A DNA stretch of 64,000 nucleotides. Origin: Hormiphora californensis (Eukaryota; Animalia; Ctenophora). The notes beneath the pieces were generated by a model. The model had not been told where the DNA came from and ran no database searches. It saw nothing but the letters and a program-made list of their open reading frames with translations. A program made the position numbers and the translations under genes. Positions within the stretch are counted from its first letter, which is position 1; every line of letters starts with the position of its first letter. The DNA lies in NCBI GenBank assembly GCA_020137815.1, contig CM035350.1, positions 4,216,001-4,280,000 on the forward strand. Direction: 5' to 3'. Of the stretch, positions 7,499 through 47,839 are shown piece after piece.

Positions 7499-8554
7499 CG
7501 AGAATAAAGTTTGTAGTGGGGTTGTGTTGAACAAAATGTTCGTGAGACTATGTATAGGCTGCAGTTTCAACCAACATGATCATAATTGAACATTTACTAT
7601 TCCACTTTATCGTCTTACTATTGGAAAATCTATCAACTCTCACAAGTATTACTGTAACCAGTAACAGGTGTGTTTGTTTCCAAACACCAGTTTCAAGAAT
7701 CAATACAAATAAAAGCTGGTCTAAAGACTCAAGCGACTAACACTAACGCACAATCCCACAATCACCATTGGGGAATTGAAAACCCGGGTTTCAAGGTACG
7801 CAGCCTCTAAGCTAAGCTCGGAGCTCCCTTCACGTTCGATGCGATGGTCCACGGACGAAGGGACTGTTGGCAAATGCTACAGACACAGTGCGGGATAAGG
7901 CAGGCGGCAGCACTTTCAATGCAAAGTCTTTTATTAAAACTGGTCACCTCCCCTGATTTTCCGTTTTCGCAAAGTTTAATTCTGCGGCATCTCTGGTTCC
8001 TGATAATGAACTTTTTTAATCATTTTTAATACAACCGGGATGAAGTCTCTGATCAGCAACCCGAGTCATCGTTAGAAACGTAAAAAAGGGTGTGAATTGT
8101 GAAGTTGGAGAAAAGCCGAAAGCGGACGTGAGTGACAGGATTTTAGAGCGAACAAAAAACAGGAAAGTGAAAATCCACGCAGCTTGTTTTGCGTTTTGGT
8201 GGTGCAGTGGAGCTGGAGTTCATAAACGCTAAGCCGCGCCTGCAGCTCATCGCGCTGCATGTCCTGTTGTGGAGCGGAGCTTGAGGGATCTTCACTGCGG
8301 ACTTTTATGCTGCGCGTCGCCAAGTAAATTAAAAAAATTAAAATTAAGTTTGCTTTTCGAGTTTGCTTTTCGAGAATAAAGTTTGTAGTGGGGTTGTGTT
8401 GAACAAAATGTTCGTGAGACTATGTATAGGCTGCAGTTTCAACCAACATGATCATAATTGAACATTTACTATTCCACTTTATCGTCTTACTATTGGAAAA
8501 TCTATCAACTCTCACAAGTATTACTGTAACAACTAACAGGTGTGTTTGTTTCCA
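7499..8554. repeat. Direct repeat of about 185 bp (7499-7683 and 8371-8554)
   Basis: cgagaataaagtttgtagtgggg...ggtgtgtttgtttccaa occurs twice with about 2 mismatches. Confidence 0.9.
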
Positions 8555-9870
8555 ACCAAGTACGAACACTGTCCCAGATCGCTGCTACGGAACCACAGTG
8601 TGCTTACAGTGGGTATACCTTCGGTCTGTCCAAGAAATGGCTTTTTCTGATGCGGACAACAGAGGGGATTGAAGAACAGTTTGCACCTCTAGAGAACATC
8701 ATCAAGTCATCTTTCATTCCAGCTCTTATGGGTTCCAACACCCCTAGCCATCTGAGGTATATTGCTGCCCTACCTGCTCGAGACGGCGGGCTAGCTATCC
8801 CCATCCCAACCACACAGGCTAGTGCTGAATTTGCGAACTCTACACAGGCTACAGAACCACTGAAACAGCTGATCCTTGAACAATCTCTTCTTATCAGCGA
8901 AAAACGTGCTGAATCATGCCTTTGGGAAGCGAAAGGAGCGAAGGGGAATGTACTAAAACTAAAACGAACTATTCAAAATGCCGAAAAACAACAGGCGTGT
9001 TCACTTCTGTCCGGTACTGACAGGCGTCTATTCGACGAAATATCATCTAGGGGAGCTTCAAGCTGGTTAACAGCTCTGCCTTTGAAAGAGCACGGTTTCG
9101 TCCTCAACAAACAGCAATACCGGGACGCCATCTTGGTGCGATACAACCTTCCCCTCGAAGATGTGCCTATTGCATGTGCATGTGGCAAGGCGAACACTCT
9201 CGAGCACTGTCTCTCGTGTGCCCTCGGAGGATACGTGTATTTAAGGCACAACAATATCCGTGACCTTACAGCTAACATCCTCGTGGAAGCCGGCTGCAAA
9301 GATGTCCGCATTGAGCCGCAGCTCCTACCCATAACTGGTGAAACATTCCAATACCGTTCTACTAACACTGCTAACAGTGCCCGTTTGGATGTTTCTGCCC
9401 GTAATGTGTGGAGTGACTTGGACAAAGTTTACACTGACATCCGTGTATTCAACAGTCTTGCGCCAACCAACATCGGCAAGTCCCTCCAGGACACTATGAG
9501 GAGACACGAGAGGGAAAAGGTATTGAATTACAACGACAGAGTCCTTCAGGTCGAGAAGGCAACTTTCACACCCCTAGTCTTCTCAACAACTGGGGTTATG
9601 GGCCCCCAAGCGGAGGTGTTCTACAAGAAGGTTGCTAAACTTCTATCTGACAAAACGGGACACACCTACAACGATGCCATTCGGTACATTCGTCTCCGTC
9701 TGTCTTTCTCGCTGCTGAAGACCATTCTCATCGCCATCAGGGGCAACAAATGGACACACTTTTGTAGCAAAACAAACGATTTTCATCTTATTATCTGATT
9801 TATTTATACTTAACTTATTACACCCGTAAGAGTAAATTTTATTTTTATACCTATTCATGTAAATAATATT
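8555..9870 (+). mobile_element. 5'-truncated CRE-like non-LTR retrotransposon (RT thumb, zinc knuckle, restriction-like endonuclease)
   Basis: ORF 8542-9798 contains CACG...HCLSC..GG...RHNNIRD, RLDV..D.RVF, HEREK..Y and FTPLVFSTTG.MG. The RT catalytic core is absent and the 3' boundary is approximate. Confidence 0.85.
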
Positions 9871-18399: not shown

Positions 18400-19580
18400 G
18401 ATGTCGGGCTGATAAAACAGTTGATTAGAGCAGGGAGGAACAAGGAGGAACGATGAGGAACAGCTATACTTGTATCTAGATGAGGACGCTGGAGTTACTT
18501 GTTGAGTAACTCAAGAATCAATAACTGTATCAGTGTGGAAAGCAATTTGCAATTGAAGGATGCGGTTACAACTTGTATACGATATTTACTCGAACATCAA
18601 ACAATCATTTGATTAATACGTGCTGGGTCGCTGGAAGAACGTGCGAGAAAAACAGTGGGGGAGTAAAATTCCACCGTCCATGACGAGAGAGTTCCAATTG
18701 AGTAAAGTAAAATGTAATAAGAGGTGATGTTTTTGTATAGAGTTTCATGCTGTTACTATGGAAACTAGAAGCCTTCCTGGGAGAAGCAACCATCGGTCTT
18801 TAGCCGAAAAGTAATGTGGGAATCTTGGCGATTATTTAATTGTAATTTCCACCCGCGAAGTATTTTACTACTACTAGATTTGCTGATATTAGGATATGAG
18901 AGAAAGTTCAAATAAATTATGCTCATAAATAGAAGTGGCGAAATTTTCATCGCGTGGGTCCTCCGATCCTGTGACCTGTGTAAATTGATATTTTGACAAG
19001 CTGACCATGCTCCTTGTCAAAATGTCTACTTAACACAAATCACAGAGTTAACACAATACTAATAGAAAATTGGGTGATGGGATTTTTGTTTATTATTTTT
19101 GATTGATATGACAGAGTTTTAATTATTCTCTCTCAGCTCTGGGTCCGCGGTGAGTGTCACAATTCTGGAATCCTGTGCGTTTGTACTAGGGCATACGAAA
19201 CTCGTGTATAGAGCAAGGATGAACCTGGACTGTGGGAAATGGCACTGGCCATTTGAGTTATTCAACTATACTAAACCGGCTCTTGTCAGCGCTAAAATTT
19301 ATTACGCGCAAAAAATTACCGCGCATTCAAGATAATACTGCTGCGCGCCTGCTTATCCAATCGAAATTTAGATTTCGCGAAATGGAAATTTCTAATTTTT
19401 AAGACGTTGGCGTTTTTGTTGTTGTAAAAAGTAAAAACGTTTTTTCTCCCGCTAACGGCCACCCGTACTTTGATAAGCGCTAAATTCAGCTTCAAAAATA
19501 GATAATCAACTCAATCTGAGACGTGGCATTGAATAAATCCAAATTCTTGTGTCGATTCAACCCAAATTTCAAACCCAAAA

Positions 19581-19620
19581 TTCAAACTTTTCAACACTAC
19601 TTTAAACAAATTAATTTGAG
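19581..19620 (+). other. Genomic copy of the ctenophore spliced-leader exon without a GT donor
   Basis: TTCAAACTTTTCAACACTACTTTAAACAAATTAATTTGAG matches my recollection of the Pleurobrachia/Hormiphora SL. It is followed by ATATG, not GT. Confidence 0.85.
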
Positions 19621-19667
19621 ATATGTCCTCAGGATGTTGAGACCGCCCGTAGGGGCAGGAAGAAGTT

Positions 19668-20690
19668 ATGACGGAGAAACTCAATACCTCTGATGCAGAT
19701 GCCGATCCACTGAAATGTGTTGATCCCTCGGTGATGGAACTACTTCGTTATGCAGTAAGAGACGTTTTGTTAATCAGGAATGGAACCAAACCGAGTCACG
19801 ATCAGGTGGATGAAGAGCTGCGGATGTTATTCTTGGATTCCAGTCGATCACTGCCAGTAGACTACGCTTTAAAAAATTATAATGGACATCAGTTCATGGC
19901 CTTCACCAAGAACCTCTGCCGTCATATTCTTCTGATAGCGAGGGAAGCTGGACAATGTATGAAAAATAACGATGAAACTGTCCGTATGAAAGAACGTCGG
20001 GAACTAGAGGAGTGTAATCGGAAACTCAAGGAGGTACAAAAAGAGCTTGGCTCATTCAAGGAAGAGGTTGATAAACATCGGGTATCAAGGATTGAGTTAC
20101 AAGAGAAGCTGATTGAAGCACAAAAAAGTTTGATTGAAGTACAAGGTCAGAAACTCAATTCGGTGTCGGAGTCTGTTCAGAAGCAATTGCAGGGCTACTC
20201 CAAAGTACTTGTCCAGAACTGCTCAGCGGCTATTGCACCATCCCGCCTCCAAGCAGCATGGAAGAAAGCGTCAGTGCCCCTTCCCACAAGTACAACAGAA
20301 GAAGCAACTCCTGATCGAAAGCTGAATTTGGTTTTGTTTGGGCTACCAGAAACTACTGCAAGAACCACTGAGCATGAAGTTCGAGATATTTTTACAGAGC
20401 TGAATGAAAAACCAGTCATAACTTCCACAAAGCGAGTCGGCGAAAAGACTGATAACCGACCAAGACCAGTAATCGTTACCCTTGAAAGGAGGGAAACCTT
20501 GTTGCAGCTTCTCAGGAAAGCAAAGCAGCTCCGGGATTCAGAGAAATTTTCCTCGGTGTTTCTTTCCCCCGACCTAACACCGGAGGAACAGCGAGAACGG
20601 AAAACTCTCGTTGATACAGTGAAAGGACTGAGGCGAGACAATCCGAATGGACGATATTGGGTTAGCAGGGGGGTAATTAAATGTGGCTGA
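19668..20690 (+). CDS. LINE ORF1p-like protein (coiled coil + RRM + CTD, CR1/L2-group type)
   Basis: RKLNLVLFGLPE, RVG....RPRPVIVTL, LLRKAKQLR and VFLSPDLTPEEQRERKTLV motifs. Confidence 0.88.
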   Translation: MTEKLNTSDADADPLKCVDPSVMELLRYAVRDVLLIRNGTKPSHDQVDEELRMLFLDSSRSLPVDYALKNYNGHQFMAFTKNLCRHILLIAREAGQCMKNNDETVRMKERRELEECNRKLKEVQKELGSFKEEVDKHRVSRIELQEKLIEAQKSLIEVQGQKLNSVSESVQKQLQGYSKVLVQNCSAAIAPSRLQAAWKKASVPLPTSTTEEATPDRKLNLVLFGLPETTARTTEHEVRDIFTELNEKPVITSTKRVGEKTDNRPRPVIVTLERRETLLQLLRKAKQLRDSEKFSSVFLSPDLTPEEQRERKTLVDTVKGLRRDNPNGRYWVSRGVIKCG

Positions 20691-20873
20691 CTTCTAATCA
20701 GTGACATGTGCACTGAAGAGACTTCTAATGGGACTTATTAATGGCTATCCGTTTTGCCCACAAAAAAGGGGCAGTATATGTAATGTATACATTTTAGAGT
20801 TAATAATAATAATAATAATCAACCCAAATTCTAAATTTTACGAGCTTTTTCTCCAGTTTTAGGAGATGTAGAA

Positions 20874-47839
<26,966 letters not shown>

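Follow-up and report, generated by a model that had tools for sequence, protein, structure and literature searches.

Introduction

Every LINE must recover the promoter that is lost on reverse transcription, and the known answers are an internal promoter, or co-transcription with the host together with a ribozyme. NeSL, CRE, SLACS and CZAR insert into spliced-leader (SL) RNA genes and encode an RT. The ribozymes of LINEs are also covered in sections of Kojima 2018 (PMC5786205), which describe in addition a group of snRNA-headed SINEs (SINEU) and non-autonomous LINEs in which ORF1 is present, namely Ag-Sponge (derived from CR1), HAL1 (from L1) and HeT-A (from Jockey). In parasitic flatworms, part of PMC12582326 reports 597 SL-like loci near LTR elements or LINEs and suggests that they are retroposed trans-spliced TE RNAs. 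Dinoflagellate genomes contain SL copies derived from reverse-transcribed trans-spliced mRNA, and the passages on these SL-relic retrogenes in PMC12014239 state that they can be re-expressed and re-spliced. For ctenophores, a section of PMC8527503 gives 718 genomic leader copies in Hormiphora californensis, where the SL is found on 56% of Iso-Seq reads, and 491 copies in Mnemiopsis; that section treats the copies only as spliced-leader loci.

Here we describe a retroelement in a 64-kb stretch of H. californensis DNA, the whole of which we call the window. Like Ag-Sponge, HAL1 and HeT-A, it has a single ORF1p, no ORF2, a target-site duplication (TSD), a simple-repeat tail and a presumed reliance on an autonomous LINE; unlike them, it has the host spliced leader as its 5' end. 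In flatworm LINE/LTR loci and Hydra TE transcripts, TE RNA likewise receives an SL. However, those cases appear in the sections concerned (PMC12582326, PMC12220107) as partial leaders and side observations with no defined family, whereas here one intact, active ORF1-only family has the SL joined at one fixed position in subfamilies that are far apart. The genomic SL copy, as in the dinoflagellate retrogenes, would have been left by reverse transcription of trans-spliced RNA, but those are host genes, on which re-splicing creates tandem SL relics; the present element is selfish and bears one SL, not a tandem. SINEU also have a head derived from a small RNA of the spliceosomal type; unlike them, the element encodes a protein, and of the SL RNA it has the exon alone, attached at the splice junction. 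An SL exon at the 5' end is also shared with NeSL, CRE, SLACS and CZAR. In a literature search that left most subscription papers and Repbase outside its scope, we found no SL-headed retroelement in ctenophores and no SL-headed ORF1-only element. ORF1-only LINEs and SL-bearing TE RNAs were thus already known, and what is new is the finding that a ctenophore has an ORF1-only LINE family which is SL-headed, active and under selection. We put the probability at about 90% that this family is an ORF1-only LINE derivative with SL-headed copies, likely reverse-transcribed from trans-spliced RNA by a putative partner LINE.

Structure of the element

The element lies on the forward strand between exact 12-bp repeats at 19557..19568 and 20819..20830. 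An exact 12-mer pair is expected by chance at about 1e-4 on a 30 x 30 grid of positions. A contig from sequencing run X2 (record 10; 425 nt, depth 25, one difference) joins 19556 to 20819 and skips 1262 nt, with a single copy of the 12 letters that fits either side of the joint. Since this is an exact empty site, the repeats are a true TSD. Between them are an SL exon copy (19581..19620), a 47-nt 5' UTR (19621..19667), an intact ORF of 340 codons (19668..20690), a 3' UTR of 110 nt (20691..20800) and a (TAA)6 tail (20801..20818), all on the forward strand. These parts and the flanking repeats lie where the original prediction placed them, but it overlooked an extra target-like stretch of 12 nt that separates the left TSD from the SL (19569..19580, forward strand). 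It falls inside the 1262 nt missing from the empty-site joint and is absent from the empty allele. This stretch resembles both the target site and the start of the SL, a likeness that suggests microhomology or a template jump at integration.

The SL copy is identical to the last 40 of the 44 nt of the H. californensis leader printed in part of PMC8527503, with the first four leader nt absent. It ends in GAG and is followed by AT instead of GT, so the predicted leader copy without a splice donor is real. We rejected an SL RNA gene, as there is no GT donor after 19620 and an Rfam search gave no match. An insertion of the NeSL/CRE/SLACS type was also rejected, because the empty site has no SL, the SL lies inside the TSDs and the element has no RT. 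An SL exon enclosed by TSDs and joined to the UTR without a GT would point to a trans-spliced RNA as the template for integration.

No internal stop interrupts the ORF, and as only 110 nt separate its stop codon from the tail there is no room for an ORF2, which had been predicted to be absent. A predicted 3' stem-loop fared less well. Two small predicted hairpins at about 20755-20790 are present in both the MFE and the centroid structures, but the fold is no better than that of shuffled sequences (z -1.16, with 28 of 200 shuffles folding equally well; for a shorter 3' stretch z -1.22 and 26 of 200). The hairpin of the 5' UTR also did not rise above shuffles. Within the 64-kb window we found the element and the SL only once each.

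The ORF1 protein and its relatives

Sequence searches of curated Pfam and of the PDB with the ORF1 protein returned only coiled-coil noise, and 19 of 21 representatives of its relatives had no Pfam match. The structure model was built from 36 sequences (mean pLDDT 60, pTM 0.25); a single-sequence model of the C-terminal domain (CTD) was poor, with pLDDT 53. All nine Foldseek matches with E<=0.001 were human LINE-1 ORF1p (best 2.5e-5). VIA-align, run against 48,161 chains, gave three matches with Z>=8, again all LINE-1 ORF1p (Z 9.9, 9.7 and 8.8), and aligned the RRM domain with Z 9.7 and an rmsd of 2.3 over 84 residues. These matches agree with the prediction of a LINE ORF1p-like frame. The modelled order of coiled coil (about residues 73-188), RRM (about 217-300) and CTD (about 305-340) is that of a LINE ORF1p of type II, which the translation, model and homologs together indicate this protein to be. 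Type II ORF1 occurs in the L1, CR1, L2 and R1 clades, according to part of PMC4120745. The ORF1 type, being common to these four, does not fix the clade of the element.

Homologs fell into 13 clusters with 43-97% identity. Their representatives are on contigs of 1.1-1.5 kb, a length that fits unit-length elements or transcripts, and 58 of the 66 members of eight clusters were near the modal length (ten clusters examined, two singletons left out). A profile search gave 4356 representatives at E<=0.001. In a tree of 23 rows, the group of the window element (eight rows) is sister to a five-row group containing a relative, L001 (98/95). We found no family member in the viral and prokaryote collections scanned, and a metagenome scan (41 of 64 parts) contained at least one locus among the 593 pattern matches listed.

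L001 is a 1041-nt contig, of DNA or RNA origin, that encodes a 318-aa protein with about 41% amino acid identity to that of the window. Its first 26 nt all match this SL and are directly followed by CAG, and it continues into a different UTR of 56 nt. Over 243 codons, window and L001 are 58, 72 and 32% identical at codon positions 1, 2 and 3. As the SL is identical in L001 while third positions are only 32% identical, the leader looks recently or repeatedly supplied. The two UTRs otherwise barely align, yet both contain a GCCC-N4-GGGCAG motif (window 19645-19658, forward strand; L001 51-64) that ends 38 nt past the SL junction. A similar GCCC-loop-GGGCAG hairpin is present in the 3' UTR of the window element (20756-20774). 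The motif may serve as a promoter element, as a splicing signal or as a hairpin bound by a protein.

To assess selection we took substitutions from 40 of 103 differences; 36 of these were in the ORF, and one beside an insertion was dropped. Synonymous changes made up 24 of the remaining 35, against an expectation of 23% (29% with transition bias), with pN/pS of 0.14-0.19 and binomial p of 1e-8 to 1e-6. Each substitution was scored on its own against the codon in the window, and the changes are not independent of one another, so the estimate is indicative only. It indicates that ORF1 is under purifying selection, in rough agreement with the predicted dN/dS below 1.

Copies of the element and the leader junction

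Of the 24 sequence runs listed, 20 contain part of the element and seven contain at least half of its words; we examined the contigs of five. X1 and X2 are from one sample, possibly the source of the window itself, and X5 is from a second sample and a second study. X2 contigs inside the element had depths of 406, 536 and 400 with 0-1 differences (records 11, 13 and 15), which makes the element body about 16-21 times deeper than the empty-site contig, a rough ratio since depth is not copy number. High depth was seen in three DNA-like runs. Other flanks occur at both ends of the element, and the complete TSD pair is seen only for the window copy. With the empty allele in X2, these results mark the element as young, multicopy, as anticipated, and still polymorphic. 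Run X1 gave no cover of the flanks, yet one of its contigs extends 69 nt beyond the tail; the run is possibly shallow DNA and was not taken as RNA evidence. Element contigs in the RNA run X8 (19978-20692) also had no flank, and as DNA carry-over is possible we did not count expression from this run.

The SL head is a trait of the family. X2 record 4 covers 19594-19644 (27 nt of SL and 24 nt of UTR) with zero differences at depth 690, and each of its 31-mers crosses the SL-UTR junction, so that junction words are about 28 times deeper than the empty-site contig, again as a rough ratio. X5 record 12 (19605-19659) has a depth of 4686, against 169-328 on the flanks, and is unbroken across the junction. 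The SL side of these junction contigs is 16-28 nt long, short of a bridging rule of 31 letters on each side. Together with the SL-headed L001, they bear out the proposal that other family members carry the leader. At least three X5 contigs join unrelated flanks to the element at 19599, 19609 and 19624, and two of these joints fall within the SL. Truncation of copies at the 5' end would give such contigs.

Bin arithmetic on X2 implied a contig of depth about 263, on an assumed three-contig layout of the depth bins, that shares only the last 5 nt of the SL and might represent a variant of the leader or a form with another head; X5 record 12 showed no such branch. X2 record 5 (19608-19648; depth 91) has six differences at the UTR start and non-SL sequence upstream, and diverges downstream. 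It is possibly a sister subfamily or an SL-less form.

The SL also occurs in many other settings in these runs. From the SL, 21 contigs in X2 and 25 in X5 run into diverse sequence (agreement 0.4; the consensus start is not GT), and 20-21 contigs in X2 and X5 lead into the SL from flanks that also vary. Retroposed heads, as opposed to SL RNA genes, may make up many of the SL copies in the genome. SL-headed elements offer an explanation for the 718 leader copies of Hormiphora and the 491 of Mnemiopsis, and if many of these copies are element heads, ctenophore SL-gene counts and gene models with a shared first exon need revision.

Insertion upstream of RPC1 and a possible second case

The window copy is inserted in sense orientation 43 nt upstream of the start codon of RPC1 (POLR3A). 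We located this gene by tblastn with RPC1 homologs; its 5' region on the forward strand (20831..20978) includes the first coding exon from the ATG at 20874 and two candidate acceptors, a CAG ending at 20856 and a TAG ending at 20862. Along the RPC1 exon chain, 560 of 881 aligned residues are identical to P0228. As judged from the DNA, the insertion site is either the outron or the first intron of RPC1. The second option stays because of an acceptor-like AG, 13 nt and GTGAGT at 19135-19151 (forward strand), a possible non-coding first exon upstream of the gene. RPC1 spans about 27 kb (20874-47836), and its 15-kb intron (about 25775-41270) holds an innexin on the minus strand (25843-26820) and a LINE.

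A second case comes from the EukProt gene model P0072, in which an ORF1 fragment with 80% identity is fused to the downstream GINS subunit PSF3. No RT domain was detected in P0072, which in a weak search was the only longer homolog of the ORF1 protein to appear. The model is likely a mis-annotation over an insertion upstream of the PSF3 gene. The two cases hint at 5'-proximal sense insertion before housekeeping genes; they are two only, and P0072 is visible only thanks to its orientation.

Possible routes of re-expression of SL-headed copies

Purifying selection on ORF1 implies that copies, once transposed, go on to act as sources themselves. As ORF1 is selected and the abundant copies are SL-headed, SL-headed copies need a way to be transcribed. 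The original prediction proposed that the genomic SL copy can itself act as an acceptor, so that read-through transcripts are re-spliced to unit length. In an extended form of that proposal, an SL-headed copy would land in sense near the 5' end of a host gene, within its transcribed part, as it did before RPC1, and the host promoter would drive its transcription. The AG that ends the element's own SL copy would then receive a fresh capped SL by trans-splicing, restoring an exact unit RNA, and the element would be lost from the host mRNA when RPC1 is trans-spliced at its own acceptor. ORF1p made from the unit RNA would coat that RNA in cis, and ORF2p of the partner would prime at the (TAA)n tail. 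We tentatively regard this combination of promoter trap and re-splicing as the likeliest route of re-expression. The broader proposal of a promoter-less ctenophore lineage, which renews its 5' end in each cycle by SL trans-splicing at its own SL copy and favours the outrons of housekeeping genes, is more tentative still. If it is true, such elements would account for many of the dispersed SL copies, of which Hormiphora has 718.

We asked how well the SL copy fits an acceptor. The acceptors of the first 15 introns of this one gene, RPC1, were CAG in ten cases, TAG in four, AAG in one and GAG in none. Boundaries were set by alignment score over all GT/AG pairs near hand-set positions; introns 3 and 10 were ambiguous, with the top three alternatives keeping the same triplet, and at introns 7, 12 and 14 the alternatives with GAG came out below the chosen ones. 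The apparent AAG acceptor is that of intron 3. The SL copy of the element ends in GAG, and a competing CAG (19630-19632) lies 12 nt downstream. This weakens the claim that the genomic SL copy acts as its own acceptor, which is possible but not favoured by the sequence. Re-splicing at nearby CAGs should also erode the UTR, which counts against the cycle, as the GCCC-N4-GGGCAG motif keeps its +38 distance in both subfamilies. Among the listed contigs of four runs, which can reveal that a form exists but not that it is missing, we found no shortened or eroded SL-UTR junction.

These same observations can be read in other ways. A few SL-less source copies with their own promoter, outron and YAG acceptor might supply the RNA, in which case SL-headed copies would mostly be dead ends and new sources would arise from an unspliced minority of RNA. 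This would explain the exact SL, the fixed position of the junction and the lack of erosion at nearby CAGs. It gains from the Hydra data in part of PMC12220107, where an SL is found on about 30% of TE Iso-Seq reads, and from the X2 form of depth about 263, which has a different upstream base, and X2 record 5 with its non-SL upstream sequence. It loses from X2 record 6 and X5 record 12, which are unbroken across the UTR start and so leave no abundant form with another acceptor. Rare forms can drop out of contigs and one or two sources could be hidden, which limits this argument; we consider SL-less sources somewhat less likely than the cycle.

The fixed-distance UTR motif could also be an internal promoter. 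In that case the SL and UTR would form a Pol II promoter, as they would in an ordinary LINE, and the SL, acquired in one or a few events, would have been retained for a role in translation or initiation with no routine re-splicing. In favour of this, the two subfamilies have the conserved motif equally far from the junction although their UTRs show little other alignment, and GAG is a poor acceptor; a promoter role has been suggested for the SL of dinoflagellate retrocopies in part of PMC12014239. An inherited head should drift, however, and the SL is identical to that of the host despite saturated third positions. The UTR is only 47-56 nt long, and the motif may be a mere RNA hairpin, a similar one being present in the 3' UTR. 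We hold an internal promoter to be doubtful, and less probable than SL-less sources. Far more improbable than either is a single retrocopy of a host gene whose mRNA is trans-spliced, or an assembly chimera that joins cDNA to genomic sequence. Dinoflagellates commonly have SL-tagged retrocopies of host genes (part of PMC12014239), but the exact empty site with its TSD, the depth in three DNA-like runs, the ORF1p fold and the many subfamilies all oppose this origin. A multicopy, polymorphic, SL-headed family with a LINE ORF1p fold largely refutes a single host-gene retrocopy. Promoter trap and re-splicing would constitute a third answer to promoter loss, renewal by trans-splicing, and a young, intact, selected SL-headed family makes it directly testable in an animal that already has long-read data.

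Search for a partner LINE

The prediction also included a partner LINE that shares the 3' end of the element. No LINE sharing the 3' end or tail was found within the 64-kb window. The RT-encoding LINE of the window (34495-37761) was rejected as the partner, since its tail is (GAA)n and its sequence shows no similarity to the element. This LINE is 5'-truncated and spans 34495-37915 with its (GAA)n tail; its frame of 1089 codons encodes an endonuclease, RT and RNase H. Elsewhere in the window is an open frame of 422 codons with no Pfam match (8530-9795), and sequence at about 7600-7690 is repeated just before it. By its motifs this frame resembles the C-terminus of a non-LTR element with a restriction-like endonuclease.
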